DNA of 28,001 nt from Kiritimatiellia bacterium (GCA_045657505.1 JAZOTG010000143.1:1-28001); one strand, 5' to 3'. Shown: positions 9,351-26,318, counted from the first letter of the stretch. The notes: generated by a model from the letters alone, not told the origin. Made by a program: numbers and translations.

Positions 9351-11336
9351 CTATTGCAAATCTACGCCCATTTCACGGAATTCTGCGGCTGCATTCAAAA
9401 AGTGAGCGGTCAGCCAGAATACCGTCCAATGTTCTTTATAACCGCCACGCTGTCCAAACGCATCAAGATGTCCGCCAAGGTTGTTCTCCGGCATATCATA
9501 ATAAGTATGCTGAATTCCCTCGCCCAGCGCGCCAGTTATGCTCGTGAGCTGGAAGCAGCTGCGATACATAATTGCGGCAAGTTTAGTGAGACGCTCATCT
9601 CCAAGATAAACGCCCATACGCCAAATGTCCGGTGTCGACAGAACGCCAAAGGCGTCAAGGTGCTGATTCTGCGGAGAGACGACCGTCCAGCCGGTTGACT
9701 TAAAACCATGGTCGTTCAACCTGCCCGGAGGCATGGCGATATCCCATACGACCGTATAGGTAAGCATATTGTTCATGGCATGCTGCGCAAGGCGTGCATA
9801 TTTCTTTTCGGCCTCGACGTCTTTCGTCTTTATTGCATTGCGCAGGAGAGCCGAGTAACCTTGAAACGCCGCAAACGCCCCTTCTTTATCCTCGCACTGC
9901 GCATCAAGCGTGCCGCCCCAATAAACCTTATCATAGCCAAAATAATCGCGCTCAAAAACTTTCGCCAGTTTTTTAGCTGCGGCCAGGCACTCTGGGCTTT
10001 CAAAAAGTTCCGCCGACGACACTAGCGGCGCAATCAAAAAACCGGACGCTGTGGAACGAGGCTCTTTCCAGTTGTCGGACAGAATCGTGCGCGCCATGGC
10101 GGTTGTCGACTTTTTCGCAAACGCACGCCATTTGGCGGGATTCAACTTGCCGCGTCCCGACTTCTCTGCAAACCTGATAGCTTTCACGATACTGTTGAGA
10201 GATTGACCGCAGGATACGGGGTCGCCTCCCCAGGTATTACCGTGCACAAGGCTTATCCCCACGCTGAAAAGGCCGTCTTGCTTGATTGTACCGATAAACA
10301 TGTCACTGATGGCGTCAAGCGAGCGTTGAGCCTTTTCCCAGTCGGTGCGGCCGAAGTCAAGCACAGGCAGCGCATACCCGCACGAGGCACCGGCTCCGCA
10401 CCAGCCAAGAACCACCTGCTTACTGCCAAAACGCGCATCCCACATATCAAACCCGCAACGGCCATTGACTTCGGTCCAGCGGGTTAACGCATAATCGCGC
10501 TTAACCTTTGCTATATGCGAGAGCGCGGCGAAACATTGCGACTCGTAGGGATGAAAAAGATCGAGCGAAACATCCATAGCCTGTTCAAAACCAAACTTGG
10601 CATCGCTCGCCTTGCCCGTTTGAATCCAAAACGTCTTGTCAACAACCTGACCGGGATAAAGAGTGATATATGTCTTATCCCGCGGAAGAGACCCCATCAT
10701 GCAGGCTTTTGAAATAGATCTGCGGCGATTATAGCCTACAGGGCCGGACATCAGAACAATATCGGAGCCTTCGCCGACTGCCTCAACGCCCGCACTCCAC
10801 CAAAGATCGTCGCATGCCGCGCCGCGCACTTGAGACGGAAGGATATGCAATGCGGCAAAATCGCGGGTTTTTGAATTTTCAAGAAGAGCAAAAGGCATAG
10901 ACAGTCGATGCTCTTCAAAAAACGCGAATTCACCCTGCTCTCCCGCGTAAACGGGCACCCGCCCGTCTTTGCGCCCCTTGTTTGACGGATTTCCGTAAAG
11001 AAGGATTCCTGGCAAAAACGGCTTCAACGCTGCAGTTTCGCCGCGGACACGGAAACGGACCGACAAGGTAACCTCATAAAGCGGCGTCCGGCCTTTCCAT
11101 TCCCAACGGCGCACCACTTTGACAAGACCGCCCGGCAATTCAGTTTTTATATCCGTTACAATCAAACCAGGCACTTCGCGCTTCCATTCTGCCACCCAGC
11201 CGTTGCACCAACCGATGCCTATTTCGGACGGTAAAAGCTCCATAGTCTTTCCATTTGCCGGAGAAGCGGCAAACAATGCGAATGAAAACCCAAGCCAGAC
11301 TAAACGAACTATTCTATTGAACATGTTATTCTTCAT
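9351..11336 (-). CDS. Secreted uncharacterised protein, probable (alpha/alpha)6 glycoside-hydrolase-like C-terminal domain
   Basis: 661-aa ORF with a signal peptide. Aromatic- and acid-rich motifs WGGTLDAQCEDKEG, YTVVWD, GWTVVSPQNQHLD and WTVFWLTAHFL in a helical C-half. Resembles hypothetical proteins I recall from Bacteroidota glycan loci; no named family recognised. Confidence 0.6.
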   Translation of the reverse strand: MKNNMFNRIVRLVWLGFSFALFAASPANGKTMELLPSEIGIGWCNGWVAEWKREVPGLIVTDIKTELPGGLVKVVRRWEWKGRTPLYEVTLSVRFRVRGETAALKPFLPGILLYGNPSNKGRKDGRVPVYAGEQGEFAFFEEHRLSMPFALLENSKTRDFAALHILPSQVRGAACDDLWWSAGVEAVGEGSDIVLMSGPVGYNRRRSISKACMMGSLPRDKTYITLYPGQVVDKTFWIQTGKASDAKFGFEQAMDVSLDLFHPYESQCFAALSHIAKVKRDYALTRWTEVNGRCGFDMWDARFGSKQVVLGWCGAGASCGYALPVLDFGRTDWEKAQRSLDAISDMFIGTIKQDGLFSVGISLVHGNTWGGDPVSCGQSLNSIVKAIRFAEKSGRGKLNPAKWRAFAKKSTTAMARTILSDNWKEPRSTASGFLIAPLVSSAELFESPECLAAAKKLAKVFERDYFGYDKVYWGGTLDAQCEDKEGAFAAFQGYSALLRNAIKTKDVEAEKKYARLAQHAMNNMLTYTVVWDIAMPPGRLNDHGFKSTGWTVVSPQNQHLDAFGVLSTPDIWRMGVYLGDERLTKLAAIMYRSCFQLTSITGALGEGIQHTYYDMPENNLGGHLDAFGQRGGYKEHWTVFWLTAHFLNAAAEFREMGVDLQ

Positions 11337-11345
11337 ATTAATTAC

Positions 11346-13274
11346 TTAATTGCAATGTACACCGGTTTTATCAACTGTTATTGAAATTTTGCGGCCGTAC
11401 ACATTTATATTCTTCAATGTCATGCGCTCAATACCTTTAGGCAGATGCGCCTTTACATCAAATTTACCAAAACCCGTCGACTGCAAACCGAACAACCCTT
11501 CAATGACTATACGGCAATAAAGAGCGCTTTCGGCGGACAAATGGCGCATATTACCCTCGGGCCAGGCTTCAACAGCGTAAGGCACATGCTCACCTAAAAG
11601 GCGCGTACGCGTATATTTGAGAAAGTTATCAAAAACCCGATCTGTCAAGGCGGCGGCGAACACGCCCCTGAAGGCATAAAGCACGCTGCGGTCCCATGTA
11701 ACGCCTTTCTTGTCGCCCTCGGCAGAGAGCATGCCCTCGCCATTCCAAAGCCATGACGAAAAGAGTGCGTCTGTAGTGCCTTCCGCTCGTGTGTAAATAC
11801 CCATGCACAGCGGAATTCCTATCCATGAGCGCAAAACGGGACACCCCTCGTAGTAACGGTATGTCTTGAAACCGTGCATCTCGCAGCCGAAATGCTTCTC
11901 GATAGACTGCAGCATATGCTCGGCGCGCCGGGTATAAAGCGAGGAGGCGTCGGCATTTCCGAATTCAGACTCTATTATTGCCGCATGACGCAGAGCGTCG
12001 TAATAGAGCGCCGATGTACAAAGATTTGCGCTGCCCGCCGGCAGACGCCCCTCAAGTTCATCGCTGTCGGAAGATACGACTCCGTCTTTTGTAAGTTTGC
12101 GACGGCAATATTCAAGCGACCAACGGATTGCGGGCAGCAGTTCCTTTGCCCAATCGCGGCGCCCAGAAGTTAAAACAAAACGCGAGGCTCCATACGCGTA
12201 CATTGCGGCGTCGCCGCGATCGCCGGCGCCATTCCAGTAGCCGAAGCCTTCGGCAATCACCGATGAGGGGATCGGTTCGTAGTTCGGCCCCATAAAAGGA
12301 ATGTAATGGCGATATGCATTCATCGAAGCCTCAAGTGCCGTTGCATCGCCCGTAAACGCAAAATACGGCCCGGCATATTCCACCTGGTCGTTACACCAGG
12401 TGGCCGCATAAAACGCGCCGCCGCCCGGAGAATGCATCAGACCTCCGCGCGTATAGAAAATGCTCTCGCCAGCGCGCAATTTTGCAAAGTGAAAAGCAGT
12501 ATCAAGCTCGTCGTTACCTGTTTCCAGCACACATGACGATGTCAACTCTGATATGCGCATGCGCCTTGCCGCGAGTTCCGCCGCTCCGTCGACAGGATAA
12601 TCAGGCTCATTAAGCATGCGCACAGAAAGACGGATCGTCCACACGCCCTTCTCGCCGGGGGCGAGCGTACTCGCCTCGGAAGGGAACACCTGCGCCCTGT
12701 ATTCATAGCGGCCCGTGCACCCGAGGGCATAGCCTGTACACCCCTTTGTAAAGGCGATCGGCATTGGAGTTGAACCGGCATTCTCAACTTCAAGCAACTC
12801 GAAGGCGGCCGCTTTATCTGCCGAAGGAAACACATGGCGCACGATACGAAGCGAGCCGTCTTCACTGTGCGACCTTGCACACCAAACACCGTCAAATGAA
12901 ATTTTATCTACTATTTCCCGGCAGATTTTACTGGCGGCAAAGAGCTTCGGCACCTCATTTTCTGTAAAATTGTGAGAGAACGTATCATGCGTTTTATTGG
13001 GCATTCTGCGATAGGCCGGCCAAAAAACACCGCGAGAAAGCGAAAGCGCACGATTGCTTTCAACATTGTACGAAAGAATGAGAGAAGCCTTGAGCCCGGA
13101 CATTTCAAGTGTATCCCGATGCGCAAGGCGCGAATCATTGGCAACATCCCACTCAATACGTTCACGCGGTTTAGCAATACGCCACCGTAGTGCGCTGCTG
13201 CTGGATTTGGCAAACGACGAAGCGGCCAAAAATGCTGCAGCGCAAACAACGGATACTTTTGCAACTAACTTCAT
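11346..13274 (-). CDS. Secreted six-hairpin glycosidase-like protein, family unassigned
   Basis: Likely start ATG 13274 (ORF track uses GTG 13280). Signal peptide MKLVAKV...AASSFA; motifs GGAFYAATWCNDQVEY, GAGDRGDAAM, SDSDELEGR and PYAVEAWPEG...HLSAES typical of (alpha/alpha)6 inverting-type hydrolases. Confidence 0.7.
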   Translation of the reverse strand: MKLVAKVSVVCAAAFLAASSFAKSSSSALRWRIAKPRERIEWDVANDSRLAHRDTLEMSGLKASLILSYNVESNRALSLSRGVFWPAYRRMPNKTHDTFSHNFTENEVPKLFAASKICREIVDKISFDGVWCARSHSEDGSLRIVRHVFPSADKAAAFELLEVENAGSTPMPIAFTKGCTGYALGCTGRYEYRAQVFPSEASTLAPGEKGVWTIRLSVRMLNEPDYPVDGAAELAARRMRISELTSSCVLETGNDELDTAFHFAKLRAGESIFYTRGGLMHSPGGGAFYAATWCNDQVEYAGPYFAFTGDATALEASMNAYRHYIPFMGPNYEPIPSSVIAEGFGYWNGAGDRGDAAMYAYGASRFVLTSGRRDWAKELLPAIRWSLEYCRRKLTKDGVVSSDSDELEGRLPAGSANLCTSALYYDALRHAAIIESEFGNADASSLYTRRAEHMLQSIEKHFGCEMHGFKTYRYYEGCPVLRSWIGIPLCMGIYTRAEGTTDALFSSWLWNGEGMLSAEGDKKGVTWDRSVLYAFRGVFAAALTDRVFDNFLKYTRTRLLGEHVPYAVEAWPEGNMRHLSAESALYCRIVIEGLFGLQSTGFGKFDVKAHLPKGIERMTLKNINVYGRKISITVDKTGVHCN

Positions 13275-13310
13275 AAACACCTTATCAACCTGTTTTTACT
13301 TCAACGGACA

Positions 13311-15730: not shown

Positions 15731-18055
15731 TTACTCAAACGAAAGTACAGCCTTCTCGCCAGGAGCAAACATGTGCTCTAAAGTCGCTTCTGCGCTGTTG
15801 CGCGTTTTGCCGCGATTCCACCCGGCAAAATTCTTTTTGCCGCCGAACGGATCGACGAGACGAAACACACCGCCCTTTTCAGATGTGATTTCAACACGGA
15901 CAACCTTTGCCCCTCTCATCTCGGCAGAAACGAGGAAACATCCTTTTGCGCGAAGGTTTTCAAACTTTGCATCTTTTGATGTCCAGTTAGGAAACACCTT
16001 CACTATACCATGGTCGCATTGAATAAACATTGAATTAACAAACTCCATTGAGCCAATTTTTTCAACGCCGTGAACTCCATCTCGTATATGAAAGTTTTTC
16101 TGCATACGCGAAAGTTGATGTTTTTTAAAGGCATCAATAACCGCTTGAGCTGGATAGCCCGTACGAATTGCCGTGGCAAAAAGTTTCGGTGTTTGATTTA
16201 TACCAGACCAAGCGCCATCTCCAGCCAATGCAATATTACCGTTTACAGCATTGGTTGCAAGTGTTTTGAATGAATCGGTGATATCAAATGAAAATGCTTC
16301 ACCAGGAATAACGCTTTCAAGATTGACAGCGTTTCCTCCAGATGGATTTGCCTTGCCGTCAGGTTTTTCTACGCCGGAAAGCATCGCAACATCTTTGCCG
16401 TTAATCGGATAAACACCTACTGGAAGCTCGGAAAGATGATCGTTCAACTCTTTCCAAGATGCAATTTTCTCCTTAGACACCTCAATACCGCACAGACGCA
16501 AATCGTCAACAACAGCAATAAGAGTTGAAAGAATATGTTTTAAGCAGGCAACTGCAGGCGCACTGTTCTTCTCAACGCCGCTACCCTCCCACTGCGAATC
16601 CCACACAACATAACGGTAAGTGCCATTGGGGAGAGACTCCTTCTCGCACCATTTAAGGAAAAAATTCGCCGTCTTATCAAGAACAGGCCAAACCTTTTTA
16701 AGATAGTCGCGATTGTGTGTATACTCCCAGTGTGTGCACATAAGCGCACATTGAAAAGCTCCATCAGAAATCTGACTCCAAAGCGTACCGTCACCTTCGG
16801 GGGCGGTACCCCACGGACCGAGAGAAACAGGATAGAGCGCGGCATCGTCAATACCGAACTTCAAATCATTGCGACGGTCTAAATAAGCGCGAGTGTTCTT
16901 AAAAAAGCAACCAAAACAACGATCTATCTTGTTAAGATTATCTTTGGCATTGCGCATAGCCTGAGGAAGATAATCAATAAGCGGATCGGGCATTGATTCG
17001 GCGACCTCGCACCTGTTAGCCGCAAAGCACCCGTACCAAGTAGCGATGTAATTGTAATTCAGATGAAAATCATTGTGCCACCCCGGCTTGTCGGTGGTAA
17101 CCCATATACCATAGAGTCCTGGAGGAAACTTGCCAGCTCTTACGCCTGCACCAAGCAAATAAACCTGGCCGAGATAAAAACGATCAAGATCGGTATCTCC
17201 CGTGGCGATACGGCTACAACCCCACCATTTAGTCCACCATGCGACATGAGACTGTTTATGCTTTTCAATATCGTTCCATGTGTATCGCTTATCGCATGAA
17301 GAAGAAACTATAAGCGCAAATGGCTTGCCTGCAAAAATTTTCAACGACGCCTTTGATTCTCCGCAATTGGGAGATGAAAGACCTTCCAGTTGAGCTCCAA
17401 GTACACTTACAGCCGCTGTTGCATTTGTAACCCAGCCGCGAGTGTCGCCTTGAGGCAGTAAATTCAATGTTGAGCGTCGCACCCAAAAGCCGTCATTAGA
17501 AACTCCGGCCTGACGAGGAAATTCTTTTATTCCATTATGGGCTACAAGCCTAAGAGTCCATGTATCATCTGAATCACATACACCCGTGATTATAAACAAA
17601 TCGTCATCGGAGGAAACGAATGATTCCATCTTCACATGAGACTTGCCAAATATCCCTTCTGTGCGTAGCGTTGCAATTGGAAGGTCAAGAATGTCAGTGG
17701 ACTTAACACTGTTTGGACCAGGAATAATCTCAAAATCAGCAAATGATATTGGAGTAATATCGTTGGAAGTGTTGCCAGAAGTCAATCTGCCGCAGCTCCA
17801 CAAATCGCCGCGCGTGAGAACAAACTTTTTACAGTTACCATCACCGCCGTTTACAACGCCAAGCGATCCATTGCCAAGAAGTGCTGCTGTAGGAATGGTT
17901 TTATCAATTGACGATCCAGGACAAGCACTTTCCCACACAGGATTGAACTGTGACGGATTTGAAAACTCAATTGCTTCTGAAAAAAGCGGGACTACCGACA
18001 TAAAAGGTATTGCCGCACAAACGGCAATACCTTTTATTGATTGCATTACTTTCAT
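15731..18055 (-). CDS. Secreted GH95-like (alpha/alpha)6 glycoside hydrolase
   Basis: True start likely ATG 18055 or 18046; the ORF-track start 18274 lies inside the upstream gene. Signal peptide; LLGNG N-terminal motif, PPGLYGIW...WHNDFHLNYN, and C-terminal VFPNW...F.NLRAKGCFLVSA, all matching the GH95/GH65-like layout. Confidence 0.75.
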   Translation of the reverse strand: MKVMQSIKGIAVCAAIPFMSVVPLFSEAIEFSNPSQFNPVWESACPGSSIDKTIPTAALLGNGSLGVVNGGDGNCKKFVLTRGDLWSCGRLTSGNTSNDITPISFADFEIIPGPNSVKSTDILDLPIATLRTEGIFGKSHVKMESFVSSDDDLFIITGVCDSDDTWTLRLVAHNGIKEFPRQAGVSNDGFWVRRSTLNLLPQGDTRGWVTNATAAVSVLGAQLEGLSSPNCGESKASLKIFAGKPFALIVSSSCDKRYTWNDIEKHKQSHVAWWTKWWGCSRIATGDTDLDRFYLGQVYLLGAGVRAGKFPPGLYGIWVTTDKPGWHNDFHLNYNYIATWYGCFAANRCEVAESMPDPLIDYLPQAMRNAKDNLNKIDRCFGCFFKNTRAYLDRRNDLKFGIDDAALYPVSLGPWGTAPEGDGTLWSQISDGAFQCALMCTHWEYTHNRDYLKKVWPVLDKTANFFLKWCEKESLPNGTYRYVVWDSQWEGSGVEKNSAPAVACLKHILSTLIAVVDDLRLCGIEVSKEKIASWKELNDHLSELPVGVYPINGKDVAMLSGVEKPDGKANPSGGNAVNLESVIPGEAFSFDITDSFKTLATNAVNGNIALAGDGAWSGINQTPKLFATAIRTGYPAQAVIDAFKKHQLSRMQKNFHIRDGVHGVEKIGSMEFVNSMFIQCDHGIVKVFPNWTSKDAKFENLRAKGCFLVSAEMRGAKVVRVEITSEKGGVFRLVDPFGGKKNFAGWNRGKTRNSAEATLEHMFAPGEKAVLSFE

Positions 18056-18071
18056 ACTAAGACTTTCTACG

Positions 18072-19853
18072 TTACTTTGAACGCTCAAGGAGGTCATGCG
18101 CGAGGACAAGAAATGCTGATGCTGTCCATGTATAGGCCGGGTCGCGAAGTGAGTCGCCGGTCTTGGCATTGAAATTCTCCGCAAAGCCCGACTTGTTGAT
18201 GAGGCGGCAGAATTTCTCTGAAATTTCATCGGCAAGAGCATCCTCACCGCAAGCACGCAGCCCCTTAACGGCAATCAAAGTTGACGGGCCCCAAATTGGA
18301 CCTCTCCAATAACCGTCCGGGTGATAATACTTACTGTTTGTCGACTCTGAAGCAAGACCCCACTCAGTAATAAAGCCCTTTTCCTTAATGTCGGCAATCA
18401 TTTTGGCACGGCACTTCTCGGGAAGACGCTTACCAAGAATTATAGGAAGACGAGTGACGAGTGAAAGTGAGTTTTCATCAAAGCCATTGTCACGCAAACG
18501 ACGCACGCGCGGCGAACCATCTTCGGTAAAGAGCACTTTGACCATAGCATCAAGGAGCTTCTTTGATTTGAGCGTCCACTCTTCAGACTCTGCTGTGCGG
18601 CCGAGTGTCTTGGCGATATCGGCAAGGCATTCCATCTGGAGAACTAAGAAAGCCTGAAGATCGGGAGTCTCAAGCGGAGGACGATTATGCTGAATTGCAG
18701 TTGAATTATCCCATCCGGAATCGCAGCCGTCGAGATACTCAAGCAAACCGTTACGGTCAAAATCGCGGCGTGTAAGCCACCATTTTGTCCAACGGCCAAT
18801 CATATCGTAAGCCAATTCAAGACGCTCACGCGAAAACTCTTTCATGTGACGAAGCTGCGAGAAAACCCACCCGTGCACCGGAGGCTTAACTGCAATCCAA
18901 TAAATCTGCTCATCAGAAACCATATCGGGCATCATACCCTCAGGCGAAAGGAAGTCAAACATGCAACGGAACTGCTCCCAGGCGGCATCCTGATCGTGAT
19001 AACCAAGACTGAGTGCATTAATAGCGTGATCCCAACTCCATGTCTTATTCATCCAGTTGTTGCTCATAAGCATCATTGGACGCTTAAACATTCCACGAGG
19101 ACCTGCAATAGTGGTCCAGAAAAGAACCGCCGCATCGTACCTTGACTTCTCGCACCCTGCAGGCACAGAAGGAAGAATACTAAGCCATTTCTCGAAACTT
19201 GCCTTCTGCTTGGCTACAGCCTCTTCAAACGTGCCTTTAATTTCGGAGCCATCCCAGTCGCCGGTGTGAATATCGTGAATTACAACTTCAATTCCCGTCT
19301 TGGAGGGTAACACCTTTACAGTATTGCCATTGTCGGGCTTGCGAACACCCTTGCGCGTATCCATAAGAATACGATCGGCATTATAATGTAAATAGTCAAT
19401 AGTCCTACCAAAAGTTGTAGGAAAATCATACTTCTGACGAGGGAACTGGTACTCAAAACGAACTTCCAATTCAGGAGATTTTGTACGGACAAGTATGGTA
19501 TCGGCATTAAGATACGCAAATTCTATCGAACCCTTCTCTGTAATAGCCTCAAGCCAACCATCGCGCATTACACACTCAGACACCTTAACATCTTGCCCAT
19601 TCACAGAAGGCACAAGACGACAAAAATTCTCGCGCCAAACTGTACTTATGTTACGAATCCAAAGGCCAGGATGCGTATTGAAGTGGTATTTACCACGCTC
19701 TAAACAACTGACCGTTAAAAACGAACCTGGGACACTGTAAGGAAAACCAGGGTTACCAACCTTTACAGGCTTGGCAAAGGCTGCGCATGTCGCGACCGCA
19801 GCGACAAGTGCCATAAACGCGTATGAACGCATTTCACAGTTTTTTCTTCTCAT
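18072..19853 (-). CDS. Secreted GH63/MGH1-like (trehalase/alpha-glucosidase-like) glycoside hydrolase
   Basis: Likely start ATG 19853 (AAGGA SD; alternative 19832). Motifs WSWDHA, KPPVHGW, DSGWDNS, YWRGPIW, FAENF and YTWTAS; the putative catalytic Asp and Glu are both present. Confidence 0.8.
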   Translation of the reverse strand: MRRKNCEMRSYAFMALVAAVATCAAFAKPVKVGNPGFPYSVPGSFLTVSCLERGKYHFNTHPGLWIRNISTVWRENFCRLVPSVNGQDVKVSECVMRDGWLEAITEKGSIEFAYLNADTILVRTKSPELEVRFEYQFPRQKYDFPTTFGRTIDYLHYNADRILMDTRKGVRKPDNGNTVKVLPSKTGIEVVIHDIHTGDWDGSEIKGTFEEAVAKQKASFEKWLSILPSVPAGCEKSRYDAAVLFWTTIAGPRGMFKRPMMLMSNNWMNKTWSWDHAINALSLGYHDQDAAWEQFRCMFDFLSPEGMMPDMVSDEQIYWIAVKPPVHGWVFSQLRHMKEFSRERLELAYDMIGRWTKWWLTRRDFDRNGLLEYLDGCDSGWDNSTAIQHNRPPLETPDLQAFLVLQMECLADIAKTLGRTAESEEWTLKSKKLLDAMVKVLFTEDGSPRVRRLRDNGFDENSLSLVTRLPIILGKRLPEKCRAKMIADIKEKGFITEWGLASESTNSKYYHPDGYWRGPIWGPSTLIAVKGLRACGEDALADEISEKFCRLINKSGFAENFNAKTGDSLRDPAYTWTASAFLVLAHDLLERSK

Positions 19854-19966
19854 TTTTCCTTCTCTTTTGTTTTTCTTCTTTTGGGTTGTTAAATACTTAA
19901 TTGAAGTTCTAGTCACAAGTTCGAGTTCGAAAGCGGTAGATAAAATTCCATTCTCCCACTCCATCA

Positions 19967-22549
19967 TCATTCGAACATGATCAGGGACACCGGACCGACA
20001 AGACCGCACTCACGGAATTGCGCGTTCGCACCGGGACCAGATTTCGTCCAAGTGGAACGCTCGGCTTCAGGGAGTTTGGCATCGGCCACAAGAGCGTTAT
20101 ACCATGTCGATACAACCTCAATGCGAACGGCCGCCTCCTTTCCGTCTTTCACAAACTCGGAGATATCGCACGAATACGGTTCACACCACAGGTCTGCAAC
20201 CTTTTTGCCGTTTATGTAGACCGTAGCCCAATCACGGACCCGTCCAAGGTGCAAAAACGCCTTCGTCCTTTCCCCGTGGATCTTTACGGCACCGGAGTAG
20301 ATGCGGTTCGTCTCTCGCGGCTGATAATCGCGTTCCGCCTTGAGGGTCAGCCGCAGAGTCTCAACCGCAGAACCGCTTGCCGCAGAAGCGGCAGACTTCA
20401 CCTCACCGGTGACAGGGTTGTACAGCGAGACCGACGAATCCTTCACCCAGTAGAATGAGGACACCCCGTCATTGCCTACGACGAAGAAGACATCGGTGTC
20501 ACCGTCATGTCGCTGATACCATCCCGCAACTTCCGACGCATTCATCCCAAGGGATGCTTCGAGAGGCGACGGCCAATCAGGGGTGAAATCGCCACGGACA
20601 ATGCGTGCGCCCTTCTTCTCCAACTCCCCGAATTTCGCCTCGGTCTCCGGCAAAAGGAACGTCCCCCGGGGAATCCAAAGAACACGGTAGCTCATGCCAT
20701 CCGGGAAAACGATGCGCCCGTCCTTGACGGAGACACGCGTCATGAGAGCATCCGAATTCAGATAGTCGTATTTGTACCGGTTGCCGAAAAGCAGTTCCCG
20801 TTCGGACGGCTTGTGGTTCACATCGTCGCCGAGATACATGAGAATGTCGACGGCGGGAAGGCCTCTCTCAAGCTCCCGTCCGCAGCGTTCGAGGTATTTG
20901 GTGAAATGCCGGAGATAGGGCCACCATGTCTGTCCGCGCAGAAAGGGCGATCCTATGTTGCGTCCAAAACTTGAAGACGGAGGCTTGCCTCCAACAACGG
21001 GGTTGTGGGTATAGGTATGGAAGACAATATGCGTCACGCCTCGCGCGAGATGCTTATCGACAATCCTTTTCCAATCCCTGAAATTTTCATTGAACGTCAG
21101 ATTGAAGCTCGTGAGAGACTCCGCACTGACCCGCTTCTTGCCGTAAATATGCGCCGACGATACGCACGGCAGGACAGGCTTGAAATCGTGGCTTCCGACG
21201 AACGATCTGTTGTTGTGCGGACTCCAGAATTCACACATTGGTTCATCCGCATATTTCCAGTAGCGAAGGATGTCACCGGGGATCACGTCACCAAATGCCG
21301 TCTCATACTGCACACTCATCCCGTGCTCTTTCGCAAGGCGCGAAATTTCCCCGTAATAATTCTCCTCTATGAGACGCGAACATACATTCCGCCAGTCGAG
21401 AAGGAATCTCTCGGTCTCCGCTTCGCTCTTCAGAACGTAGCCGAAAAGTGCGGGCAGCCATGATTTCAAGGCATATCCGGTGCGCCTCTCGAACTCCTCC
21501 TCCATTTTCCACGTCCATGTCTGACAGCCGCACTCCCAACTGTCGACAAGCATCCCATCGACCTTTACACCCGCTTTGAGAAGCCTCCCGACATATCCAT
21601 CGAAATTGGCGCGGAATCCGCGCGGATCCATTTTATCGCATTCCCATCCCGTAGCCTCTGCAGGCGCGGGATGGTTTCTCCTCTTCATATTGACATGTCC
21701 GAATACGAGCGTCTTGACACCTTTCGTCCTGACCGGAGACGCATTCGTCGACATCGCAAAGCTCCGGAGTCCCCAACCGGCCTTCGCCTCCCACATGTCA
21801 AGACGCGGCTCGGGGGAAACCGAAGCCTTGACCTTTTTGTTTCCGAAGTTGCGGCTCTCAATCACGAACTGCAGCTTTTCGGGGTTTTCGATTTTCCGCC
21901 TGACCCGTCTCGTCATCCCCACGACATCCTGCCACGCGCCTTGAGAGCACGCCAGCCGGAAAACCTCGTTTGAAGAAGCGTCATATGCGACGATATCGCC
22001 GCCGATATCGTAGGCCCATCCATGGTTTATATATGACGGATTCGGAAGAACAACCGTTGTGTCATCCGACACCTCCAAAGGAAACGCAACCTCCGCAATC
22101 TCACGGTAGTCGTCGTCGGATGTAAAATTCGGCTTTCGGCCGCGTTCAAAGCAGACAAGTTTCCGCATTGCACGGTCCGCCCCTATCCACGGCCCACCGG
22201 ACATGGACCAACCGGGACAGTTCTGCATCTTGAACGCAAGTCCGCGCCGATGGCACTCCCTTTCGGCAAACTTCACGAGATCCACCCAGTTTTCACTCAA
22301 GCACGGTATGGGATTCGTGACGCCCGGCCACGGTTTGTCACCGGCCCATCCGCCATGGAAGAACTGAATGCCGGAAACCCCGGCCTCCGCCAACGCCGCA
22401 ATATCGGCGGCAAGGCCTTCCTTTGAGGCGTTTCCGCCTATAACGTGAAACCACGTCTCCGGGGCGCACGATCCGCCCGGCGCAGCCGACAGGACGGGCA
22501 CATTGAGAAAAACGAACAAAGCAGCGAATGCGGAAATTGAATGTTTCAT
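19967..22549 (-). CDS. Secreted GH106 alpha-L-rhamnosidase-like enzyme
   Basis: Likely start ATG 22549. Motifs PETWFH..GGN.SKEG, CPGWSMSGGPWI, VDSWEC, PMCEFW, SSAHIYGK..VSAESLTS, FHTYTHNP and LHLGRV...ATV.INGK...LW..PY. Tandem TGA TGA stop. Confidence 0.88.
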   Translation of the reverse strand: MKHSISAFAALFVFLNVPVLSAAPGGSCAPETWFHVIGGNASKEGLAADIAALAEAGVSGIQFFHGGWAGDKPWPGVTNPIPCLSENWVDLVKFAERECHRRGLAFKMQNCPGWSMSGGPWIGADRAMRKLVCFERGRKPNFTSDDDYREIAEVAFPLEVSDDTTVVLPNPSYINHGWAYDIGGDIVAYDASSNEVFRLACSQGAWQDVVGMTRRVRRKIENPEKLQFVIESRNFGNKKVKASVSPEPRLDMWEAKAGWGLRSFAMSTNASPVRTKGVKTLVFGHVNMKRRNHPAPAEATGWECDKMDPRGFRANFDGYVGRLLKAGVKVDGMLVDSWECGCQTWTWKMEEEFERRTGYALKSWLPALFGYVLKSEAETERFLLDWRNVCSRLIEENYYGEISRLAKEHGMSVQYETAFGDVIPGDILRYWKYADEPMCEFWSPHNNRSFVGSHDFKPVLPCVSSAHIYGKKRVSAESLTSFNLTFNENFRDWKRIVDKHLARGVTHIVFHTYTHNPVVGGKPPSSSFGRNIGSPFLRGQTWWPYLRHFTKYLERCGRELERGLPAVDILMYLGDDVNHKPSERELLFGNRYKYDYLNSDALMTRVSVKDGRIVFPDGMSYRVLWIPRGTFLLPETEAKFGELEKKGARIVRGDFTPDWPSPLEASLGMNASEVAGWYQRHDGDTDVFFVVGNDGVSSFYWVKDSSVSLYNPVTGEVKSAASAASGSAVETLRLTLKAERDYQPRETNRIYSGAVKIHGERTKAFLHLGRVRDWATVYINGKKVADLWCEPYSCDISEFVKDGKEAAVRIEVVSTWYNALVADAKLPEAERSTWTKSGPGANAQFRECGLVGPVSLIMFE

Positions 22550-24092: not shown

Positions 24093-26318
24093 TTAATTCC
24101 CACTTGCTTTTGCATTTGGCACAGGTTTGCGCACGAACACGTGGAGCCATCCGTTCGCCGGAATCTCCACCTCGACATACGCCCTGCACCCCGCATCAAG
24201 CTTCACCAAGCTGAATGCGGCTCCGTCGCCGACCGCGATTTCCGCGGCGCCGGAAAGACCTGTGTAGTACAGCGGCAACGAGACATTGCGCTTCACGACA
24301 TTCGCGAGCGGATTGAACAGGGACGCTATCGCGCGCACTCCGCCGCCCGGATCGGGATCGACCATCATCCATCCGTCCCAGTCGCGGCCGTCAGCACGCC
24401 TGAGGTGTATCATGTCGCCGTCGAGGATGCGCCTGTTTTCCTTATAGAAAGTCACCCACTTCTTCACCATTCCGAGCGTTTCCGGCGAATCGTACAGCCT
24501 CGGCCCGCGCCAGCAGGCCTGTGCGCCCGCTCCGAGCAGATTGGCGAAGCGCAGTTCGTAATGGGCCAGATTTTTAGAAAGCGGCTCCACCGTCGCCGCC
24601 GACCCGCCGCCGTGGTATTGCGCGAGCGGCACGAACATCCAGTGCATGGACGTGTTCCACGTCCAGCTGTTGTCGTAAACGTTCTGCCTCTCTATGATCG
24701 TCTGGTAATCACGCGGAAGCGACCAGTTCGTCTCGCGGTATCCGCCGGCGGTCTTGTTGCCACCCTCGAGGAAGTAGCCGTCGGGCTGGTTCACGTAGAT
24801 GCCATTCGCACGGCAGAAGCGGTAGAGGTCCGACTGCGCCCGCCACTGGTTCCATACAGAATCCTCCTTGCCGTCGTGGTAGGGGTGGTTTGTGGCCGTG
24901 CAGTAGTCGCCGGGGTATGGGCCATCATTCTCGAACACGCCGAAACCCGCCTCTTTCATGAACGAGGCAAGCGTATCGAGATACTCGCGTCCCCAGCGCG
25001 AACAGAGGCACGGCCCCACGCGGAAACGTGGATTGGGGTTCCGCACGTTGTCCGACCTGACGCCCGCGCCTCGCGAGGAAGTGAGCGAATATCCGCCGAG
25101 CGCGATGCCCTGCGACCTGGCTTCGTCCGCCAACGCCTTGTACTTCTCGCGGTACTTCGGGTCTTTCGATTCAAGGTTGAAGCCGGAGCCAAAGCTCATG
25201 ATGACAAGCTCGAAACCCGTATCGACGCATTGTTTTATCGCGGCGCGGACGTTCTCCGGACTCGCCGACGCCTTGCAGTGGAACATCAGCGGGTTTTCGC
25301 TCGTCCATGGCGCGATGACGCGGTACATCCGCCTTATGGAAAGCCCCCTGCGCTCGTGTTCGGTGGAGTCGAAGAGCAGTTCCCACACGCGGAACGTCTC
25401 GAACGTCTCGCCGGGCGCGAGTGTCTTCGCAGGCCCCATATCCGGATAGCACCGCAGGACGTTTATCCCGTCGTAGAGCCACGCCTCCTGGGTCTTGTAG
25501 CCGGGATCGGTCTCATAGTGGATGCTCTGCTGTTTTTCTCCCCGCCAGCCGTAATTGCCGGTCGCACCGTAGTTGCTCTCCACATGGAGGTTGAACGGCA
25601 CGGGCAGCCACTCGCGGTCGAACTGGCCGGAAGGCTCGGCAAGACGCAGTTCCTCTACGGTGAAGGTGTCGAGCTTCACCGCACGGCCCGTGCAGTTGGA
25701 GATCGTCATCCATTTCGACACGACCGGTATCCCATCGTATATCTCGTAGTGCACGGTCACGGACGGAAGCGAAGAGCCGTCCGCCACGGCGGGCGCCTTG
25801 TAGCGCATCGCAAGGTGGCGGCCCTTCGCGGGCCACGACGTCTTACGCGCCGTCCATTCCGGGCGCGGCTTCCACGGGAAACGCTCCTTGACGGCATCCG
25901 TTTCGCATCCGGCAAAGGAGTAGGCCGTGTCGTCGGGTTTCATCCCGGCGATCCACTCCTCGCGGATATAGTTTAGGATAGGCTGGCCGGAAAGTCCGCC
26001 TATGCTGTATTTCTTCCCGTCGAATCCGACGATTCCCTCGGGCGAAACGCCGCGCACGAACTCCTCGTTCGTGGAGAGGCGTTTGAACGAAACTGTCGCC
26101 GCACCCGGCTTCAGCGTCACCACGCGGCGGACAAGGCCGTTGTCCAGCACACAGGCGTCCGCCGTCGTTTCAATCCGCGCCGAATACGGCGATGGATCGA
26201 GAAGCCAGTCCTCTTTGCCCTCGGCGAGTCCGCCTGCCGTGAGGCCGTGTCCGTAAAGATTGACTGTCACGGATATCGCGGCCATTGCCGCAAGAATTGT
26301 CGTCGTCTTGTCTTTCAT
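24093..26318 (-). CDS. Secreted putative alpha-galactosidase (GH36-like, clan GH-D TIM barrel)
   Basis: 741 aa with a signal peptide; L.NGLVRR N-terminus, PWTSENP, MSFGSG, GGYSL.SSR, FENDG.YPGD and YRETNWSLPR. I recall this pattern from Bacteroidota proteins annotated as alpha-galactosidase. Confidence 0.65.
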   Translation of the reverse strand: MKDKTTTILAAMAAISVTVNLYGHGLTAGGLAEGKEDWLLDPSPYSARIETTADACVLDNGLVRRVVTLKPGAATVSFKRLSTNEEFVRGVSPEGIVGFDGKKYSIGGLSGQPILNYIREEWIAGMKPDDTAYSFAGCETDAVKERFPWKPRPEWTARKTSWPAKGRHLAMRYKAPAVADGSSLPSVTVHYEIYDGIPVVSKWMTISNCTGRAVKLDTFTVEELRLAEPSGQFDREWLPVPFNLHVESNYGATGNYGWRGEKQQSIHYETDPGYKTQEAWLYDGINVLRCYPDMGPAKTLAPGETFETFRVWELLFDSTEHERRGLSIRRMYRVIAPWTSENPLMFHCKASASPENVRAAIKQCVDTGFELVIMSFGSGFNLESKDPKYREKYKALADEARSQGIALGGYSLTSSRGAGVRSDNVRNPNPRFRVGPCLCSRWGREYLDTLASFMKEAGFGVFENDGPYPGDYCTATNHPYHDGKEDSVWNQWRAQSDLYRFCRANGIYVNQPDGYFLEGGNKTAGGYRETNWSLPRDYQTIIERQNVYDNSWTWNTSMHWMFVPLAQYHGGGSAATVEPLSKNLAHYELRFANLLGAGAQACWRGPRLYDSPETLGMVKKWVTFYKENRRILDGDMIHLRRADGRDWDGWMMVDPDPGGGVRAIASLFNPLANVVKRNVSLPLYYTGLSGAAEIAVGDGAAFSLVKLDAGCRAYVEVEIPANGWLHVFVRKPVPNAKASGN

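Follow-up and report, generated by a model that had tools for sequence, protein, structure and literature searches.

Several families of carbohydrate-active enzymes share the (alpha/alpha)6 barrel of the six-hairpin glycosidase-like superfamily, and the face of the barrel that carries the long loops is usually the catalytic face. GH76 enzymes use an adjacent catalytic Asp-Asp pair, and GH127/GH146 enzymes have a conserved Cys nucleophile or Cys-rich zinc site. Lyases (PL27), epimerases/isomerases, and terpene cyclases have this fold as well. PL27 (BACCELL_00875, PDB 5no8/5nok), an L-rhamnose-alpha-1,4-D-glucuronate lyase family, is taken here to correspond to DUF5695 of Pfam. In its two-domain build, a beta-sandwich at the N-terminus precedes an (alpha/alpha)6 barrel (PMC8377490). 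The enzymes of GH139 resemble GH95 and have a three-domain build that includes a C-terminal beta-sandwich; crystal structures are available for BT0984 and a homologue (PMC12282258).

The gene studied here lies in a window of 28,001 nucleotides, which is the whole stretch of DNA analysed, and encodes a protein of 661 residues (P0001). P0001 resembles PL27 in its predicted two-domain build, and both proteins appear to be exported and lie in glycan-degrading loci with rhamnose-active enzymes. However, only 8% of the structurally aligned residues are identical, the invariant residues of P0001 are carboxylates, and uronate-linked partners do not recur beside it. Membership in PL27 was rejected: PF18951 (DUF5695) did not match P0001 or the window's genome, yet it matched the B. 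thetaiotaomicron control, and hhalign of the superfamily alignment A3 against a DUF5695 protein returned a probability of 0.1. The features of the gene are as follows.

9351..11336, minus strand: complete coding sequence of P0001, 661 aa plus stop (stop codon 9351-9353), with full-length homologues
11256..11336, minus strand: probable Sec signal peptide, residues 1-27, from sequence features and the model
10611..11246, minus strand: predicted N-terminal beta-sandwich, residues 31-242, which carries the superfamily-invariant N116 and E141 and the near-invariant R144
10905-10919, minus strand: FEEHR motif of the beta-sandwich, which holds E141 and R144 (alignment)
9372..10592, minus strand: predicted (alpha/alpha)6 barrel, residues 249-655 (model and structure comparison)
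9879..9920, minus strand: WGGTLDAQCEDKEG, residues 473-486, loop between barrel helices 7 and 8, with candidate catalytic carboxylates; E482 and D483 are superfamily-invariant
9654..9677, minus strand: SPQNQHLD, residues 554-561, loop between barrel helices 9 and 10; S554 is invariant, and N557, H559 and D561 are conserved at 90% or more
9504..9533, minus strand: GALGEGIQHT, residues 602-611, start of the long loop between helices 11 and 12; G602, E606 and T611 are invariant

The 661-aa open reading frame of the initial annotation was confirmed at this position, on the minus strand, which had not been stated. It is a genuine gene and not a chance ORF: of the candidates that a word-indexed protein search scored, 512 were homologues at E<=1e-3, mostly full length and at 78% identity and below. 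A database copy (P0002, 657 aa) uses the alternative start M5.

The protein had been described as secreted, and its N-terminus agrees with this. The sequence MKNNMFNRIVRLVWLGFSFALFAASPA/N contains basic residues, a hydrophobic core, and a small-x-small site, and its shape is Sec-type, with K2, R8 and R11 followed by the hydrophobic stretch L12-A24 and then S25-P26-A27. The model shows a signal helix at 3-22 and then a disordered, low-confidence stretch at 24-28, and the cleavage site is putative. A lipobox Cys was not found on inspection of the N-terminal sequence. As modelled, P0001 is most likely an exported (periplasmic or surface) two-domain carbohydrate-active enzyme. The Trp-rich C-terminus that had been remarked on is not a special feature of this protein, which is Trp-rich as a whole: 22 of its 661 residues are W, and the last 162 contain 5 of these.

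P0001 belongs to a large and widespread family that is unnamed in Pfam-A, NCBIfam, and PDB sequences. P0001 matched nothing in Pfam-A (E<=0.01) or NCBIfam, and neither P0001 nor the close-family profile A1 (39 sequences) matched any PDB sequence. The earlier statement that it fits no named GH or PL family therefore stands for these three collections, which also hold no strong full-length match to a characterised family. No characterised family member was found in the literature, and all named homologues are called 'hypothetical protein', mostly in Kiritimatiellae MAGs of ruminant guts. An exhaustive profile search (E<=1e-3) gave 845 representatives at 50% identity, of which 113 were at E<=1e-30, and at least 588 loci that encode a member, at 40-65% identity, were counted in species genomes. 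The carriers are Kiritimatiellae, many Bacteroidota (Parabacteroides faecalis, Dysgonomonas, Alistipes, Prevotella, Flavobacterium, Parapedobacter and Aureibaculum), Planctomycetota and others, and the family was found in bacteria of gut, rumen, freshwater and soil. The spread is patchy, with a match in 4 of the 151 sampled genomes of the window's class.

Several relatives differ in length or copy number. Four Bacteroidota genomes each contain an orthologue of P0001 and a more distant paralogue, and this second subfamily is equally unannotated. The MAG of the window (65% complete) contains a second, partial family copy (G000:C38:19-927, locus L082), which covers the N-terminal ~310 residues and is ended by the contig edge. 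A Kiritimatiellae paralogue group (P0107; L014-L017 and L024) has proteins of ~910 aa, 47-48% identical, with an unannotated N-terminal extension of ~250 residues, and the relatives P0126, P0128 and P0135 have extensions of ~200 residues that match no Pfam model.

The AlphaFold2 model of P0001, built on the 39-sequence alignment, reached a pLDDT of 87.6 and a pTM of 0.89. The twelve predicted helices of the barrel are 272-284, 318-326, 330-350, 373-393, 401-419 and 429-445 (helices 1-6), and 448-465, 484-503, 507-525, 563-578, 581-593 and 641-655 (helices 7-12), and the modelled chain ends with the barrel. One face of the barrel carries the six short connections (e.g., 326-330 and 445-448), and the opposite face carries the six long ones (284-318, 350-373, 419-429, 465-484, 525-563 and 593-641). 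When the barrel was modelled alone, the pLDDT was 83.3 and loop 610-633 was less confident once the N-domain had been removed.

A Foldseek search, which the initial annotation had proposed as a check, returned fold-level six-hairpin matches; with the whole model, both Foldseek and VIA-align matched only generic six-hairpin proteins. The sole solved structure that matched both domains with a modest rmsd was that of PL27 BACCELL_00875 (5no8; Z 16.7, 448 aligned, rmsd 7.0). With the barrel alone, the Z values were 24.7 for GH76 (6u4z), 24.6 for YPO2471, 23.5 for cellobiose 2-epimerase, 22.9 for PL27, 22.6 for GH88 and 21.7 for the GH15-type 5z3a, all at 8-14% identity, with no family ahead and Foldseek TM values of 0.57 or less. 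The wide profile A3 gave partial, clan-level matches in the PDB: YteR/GH105 (3.6e-6), a PL2 lyase, GH76 (2e-3), LanC-like proteins, cellobiose epimerases, and GH127 (0.07). By its predicted fold, the P0001 barrel thus counts as a six-hairpin protein, and no solved family is close to it.

The nearest glycosidase families were compared in turn. GH76 alpha-1,6-mannanases (6u4z, BT2949 4v1r/4v1s, BT3792 4c1s, Aman6 4d4a) include the top barrel-only match (rmsd 3.8, 329 aligned), have the weak profile match given above, and recall the GH92 genes found upstream of the family gene in four loci. However, this Z value is tied with those of epimerases, PL27 and GH88, the identity is 8-9%, and GH76 has no N-terminal beta-sandwich. 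PF03663 did not match P0001, and distant relatives were matched only below threshold, so GH76 membership was rejected. In the profile alignment with Aman6, the residues opposite E482-D483 of P0001 are the H-N of LNSDHNTKN rather than an acidic pair.

GH105/GH88 (YteR 1nc5/2gh4; UGL 1vd5, 3wiw) gave the best PDB profile match and barrel Z values of 19-22.6. The likeness is at clan level, in the hairpin repeats, whereas the architecture and the conserved residues are different. PF07470 gave no match, and the YteR alignment covers 150-279, 36-63 and 86-122 but not the Asp143 region; GH88/GH105 membership was rejected.

The GH15-type inverting enzymes (isomaltose glucohydrolase 5z3a, bacterial glucoamylase 1lf6, glucodextranase 1ulv) also combine a sandwich and a barrel in their bacterial members. 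Their barrel Z values were 17.5-21.7, and the 13-14% identity with 5z3a was the highest listed. A mid-barrel carboxylate and a carboxylate in the helix 11-12 loop would lie at similar relative positions in both. However, there is no sequence-family match, and the orientation of the domains differs (full-length rmsd >20).

Three other memberships were rejected. For GH127/GH146 (DUF1680), PF07944 gave no match, the HypBA1 profile match was only at E 0.07, and A3 contains no conserved Cys. For GH139/GH95, there was no PDB sequence match and no GH95 Pfam match, and the P0001 model ends at the barrel. For GH9, PF00759 and the PDB sequences gave no match, Foldseek likeness was fold-level only (TM 0.37-0.52), and the label came from automatic cluster names. 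Such atlas names on some look-alike clusters ('Glycosyl hydrolase family 9', 'Glycoside hydrolase family protein', 'GH76 family', and GH127_cat) were not borne out, as regards GH9, GH76 and GH127, by the HMM tests.

Both motifs that the initial annotation had singled out, WGGTLDAQCEDKEG and SPQNQHLD, are present in P0001 and are the most conserved blocks of the family. Within these blocks, D478, C481, E482, D483, E485, S554, Q556, N557, Q558 and D561 are invariant in the 39 close sequences. In the superfamily alignment A3, which extends to ~20% identity, the invariant residues are N116, E141, P167, G183, S197, K279, G295, G314, E482, D483, A517, S554, G602, E606, T611, G631 and W641. Those conserved at 90% or more are R144, E153, R286, W312, D478, K484, E485, W531, W550, N557, H559, D561, R630 and W637; D478, K484 and E485 are in the WGGTLDAQCEDKEG loop, where the pLDDT is locally low at 474-480. 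Four carboxylates, E141, E482, D483 and E606, thus remain invariant to ~20% identity, and E606 is a candidate for the second catalytic carboxylate. A3 has no invariant His or Tyr. Conservation of C376 and C481 is limited to the close subfamily (A1), and no Cys is found among the A3 columns that are invariant or conserved at 90% or more.

Judging from the topology of the model, the conserved barrel residues would lie on or at the ends of the long loops, except for K279 and A517. Conserved residues on the long-loop face of an (alpha/alpha)6 barrel accord with the six-hairpin glycosidase-like superfamily at fold level. The initial annotation had named a predicted fold that lacks an acidic pocket as evidence against its proposal. 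The prediction, a sandwich plus a barrel, is a classic scaffold of glycosidases and lyases, with E482, D483 and E606, and E141 contributed by the N-domain, at the long loops of one barrel face, and it does not count against the proposal. The loss of confidence in loop 610-633 without the N-domain, together with the invariance of N116 and E141 in the sandwich, suggests that the N-domain helps to form the active site.

The gene had been said to sit among CAZymes, and the window indeed contains a same-strand run of GH36, GH2, GH95-like, GH63-like, GH106 and GH43 genes. Every large gene from 873 to 27999 is on the minus strand, as is P0001. The Pfam assignments of the neighbours are GH36+NPCBM, a LamG/PATR surface protein, GH2, GH95-like, MGH1/GH63-like, GH106, GH43+CBM6, an MFS sugar transporter, and an AGE-type epimerase. 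Among these, GH43 is a xylosidase/arabinofuranosidase-type enzyme rather than an exo-beta-1,3-galactanase; therefore, an arabinogalactan-protein locus is unsupported.

The P0001 gene starts 9 nt past the stop of the preceding gene on the same strand. This gene (11346-13280, minus) encodes a secreted protein of 644 aa, which has no Pfam, NCBIfam or PDB sequence match and no relation to P0001 by hhalign. One homologue, 41% identical, was found in a locus (L028) where a member of the P0001 family also occurs.

The gene order of the window was not kept in 80 related loci. Close Kiritimatiellae orthologues are surrounded by GH31, GH123, GH106, GH78, GH97, GH43, GH116, GH109 and GH5 genes. The recurrent neighbour clusters were a Gfo/Idh/MocA oxidoreductase (8 loci), GH92 and GH78 (7 each), GH127 (6), and GH2, GH29 and a SASA esterase (5 each). 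In Bacteroidota, the gene directly upstream of the family gene is GH127 in L041, L057, L061, L066 and L068, and a GH92 alpha-mannosidase gene in L043, L046, L048 and L049, with GH78 and a SASA esterase nearby. In Alistipes, an AsmA-family gene, the family gene and GH78 follow each other (L033, L039, L044). PL11 domains adjoin the family gene in three loci, and no recurring GH88/GH105 partner was found in the neighbourhoods examined. The fusion partners seen in relatives include aldose 1-epimerase (two clusters) and an IU-nucleoside-hydrolase-like domain, as well as GH43/BNR, GH13-like, and DUF5060/DUF5605 modules.

This pattern agrees with an accessory role in the degradation of heterogeneous glycans in which rhamnose, arabinofuranose, fucose or mannose abound, and does not name the linkage. 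The neighbourhood differs from species to species and so points to no single substrate; P0001 most likely trims one sugar linkage of a complex, plant-type glycan with rhamnose, arabinose or fucose in it.

The Gfo/Idh/MocA oxidoreductase (PF19051), the commonest neighbour cluster, is of the periplasmic type (L023, L053, L058, L062, L071, L072, L075, L080) and directly adjoins the family gene in three of these 8 loci.

Since P0001 has no known family match, a confident predicted fold, invariant carboxylates, relatives fused to glycosidase modules, and CAZyme neighbours, we consider it, on balance, to be probably an exported glycoside hydrolase of an unclassified six-hairpin family. The initial proposal of a candidate new glycoside hydrolase family is supported to this extent and keeps the rank of a candidate. 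A polysaccharide lyase of PL27-like architecture, acting by beta-elimination next to a uronic acid, appears unlikely. The structure of PL27 matches both domains of P0001 and also the barrel alone, rhamnosidases are near (GH106 in the window and GH78 elsewhere), and so are PL11-type RG-I lyase domains, but there is no sequence relation to PL27 and no invariant His or Tyr in A3. A lyase would be expected to have a GH88/GH105 partner, and none recurs, which argues against this activity. The mutarotase fusions fit the hydrolytic release of a neutral sugar, though PL27 too frees rhamnose. An unsaturated uronyl hydrolase of GH88/GH105 type, which hydrates the double bond left by a lyase, is very improbable. 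The best sequence-profile match in the PDB is to YteR (an aligned stretch of 130 residues), the GH88 and GH105 barrels match that of P0001, and PL11 domains are found beside the family gene in three loci; however, the YteR match is the sum of three weak hairpin-repeat alignments outside the region of the catalytic Asp143, P0001 has no Pfam GH88/GH105 match, these enzymes have no N-terminal beta-sandwich with invariant residues, and most neighbourhoods contain no lyases.

It is similarly hard to see P0001 as a protein that cleaves no glycosidic bond, such as a sugar epimerase/isomerase, a glycan-binding protein or another barrel protein. The barrels of AGE, cellobiose-2-epimerase and mannose isomerase match as well as those of glycosidases (Z 22-23.5), and terpene cyclases and LanC-like proteins are also among the structure and profile matches. 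However, the known AGE/CE enzymes are cytoplasmic, whereas P0001 has a signal peptide and a setting among exported glycosidases; moreover, the His residues of AGE/CE have no invariant counterpart in the P0001 family, and its relatives are fused to glycosidase modules. A separate matter, compatible with any functional reading, is that the family may already be numbered, or listed as 'non-classified', in CAZy while having no Pfam/NCBIfam model or solved structure. There is some chance of this, though a small one. The creation of CAZy families outpaces Pfam, and some look-alike clusters are automatically named GH9 or glycoside hydrolase, but the named homologues are all 'hypothetical protein', NCBIfam 2026 and PDB 2026 gave no match, the literature yielded no characterised member, and GH9 and GH139, both with structures, are excluded by sequence.

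If P0001 is a glycoside hydrolase, E482/D483 (loop 7-8) and E606 (loop 11-12) could serve as the general acid and base, to judge from their conservation and loop position. Their relative barrel positions (~0.55 for E482/D483 and ~0.86 for E606) resemble those of the catalytic pairs of GH15- and GH125-type enzymes, which suggested this assignment. Hydrolysis would probably be inverting, and the -1 subsite may be closed in part by N116/E141/R144 of the beta-sandwich. Given the mutarotase fusions of relatives, the product would probably be a free neutral aldose. In the close subfamily, C376-C481 may form a disulfide that stiffens the catalytic loop.

A bolder and tentative possibility is that P0001 and its relatives found a new GH family, whose site is built jointly by the sandwich (N116/E141/R144) and the barrel (E482/D483 and E606) and which cleaves a linkage in complex pectic or microbial glycans that has no enzyme yet known. 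If true, this would explain the patchy, horizontally spread distribution beside GH78, GH106, GH127, GH92 and GH29. Unnamed families of glycan-degrading loci are where new enzyme specificities still turn up. Assigning an activity to the P0001 family would improve the annotation of many metagenomes, and the enzyme could account for a step that is still missing from the degradation of complex plant or microbial glycans. The finding is a useful one but no surprise, since both the fold and the broad type of enzyme are well known.

Several other reading frames of the window showed minor peculiarities. A protein of 741 aa from the same cluster (24093-26318, minus) is unannotated, with no Pfam or PDB match, and is unrelated to P0001. 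Opposite to it, an ORF of 611 aa (24141-25976, plus) has the look of a shadow ORF. A stretch of ~200 nt is shared by the GH95-like ORF, which has a TTG start, and the end of the GH63/MGH1-like ORF (15731-18274 and 18072-20009, both minus); the N-terminal ~70 residues of the GH95-like ORF look non-native, and its true start is probably further downstream. The AGE-type epimerase ORF (873-1769, minus; 298 aa) matches its Pfam model from position 64 onwards only, so its N-terminus may be truncated or its start misplaced. In the MFS transporter beside it (410 aa), Sugar_tr was matched in two pieces.
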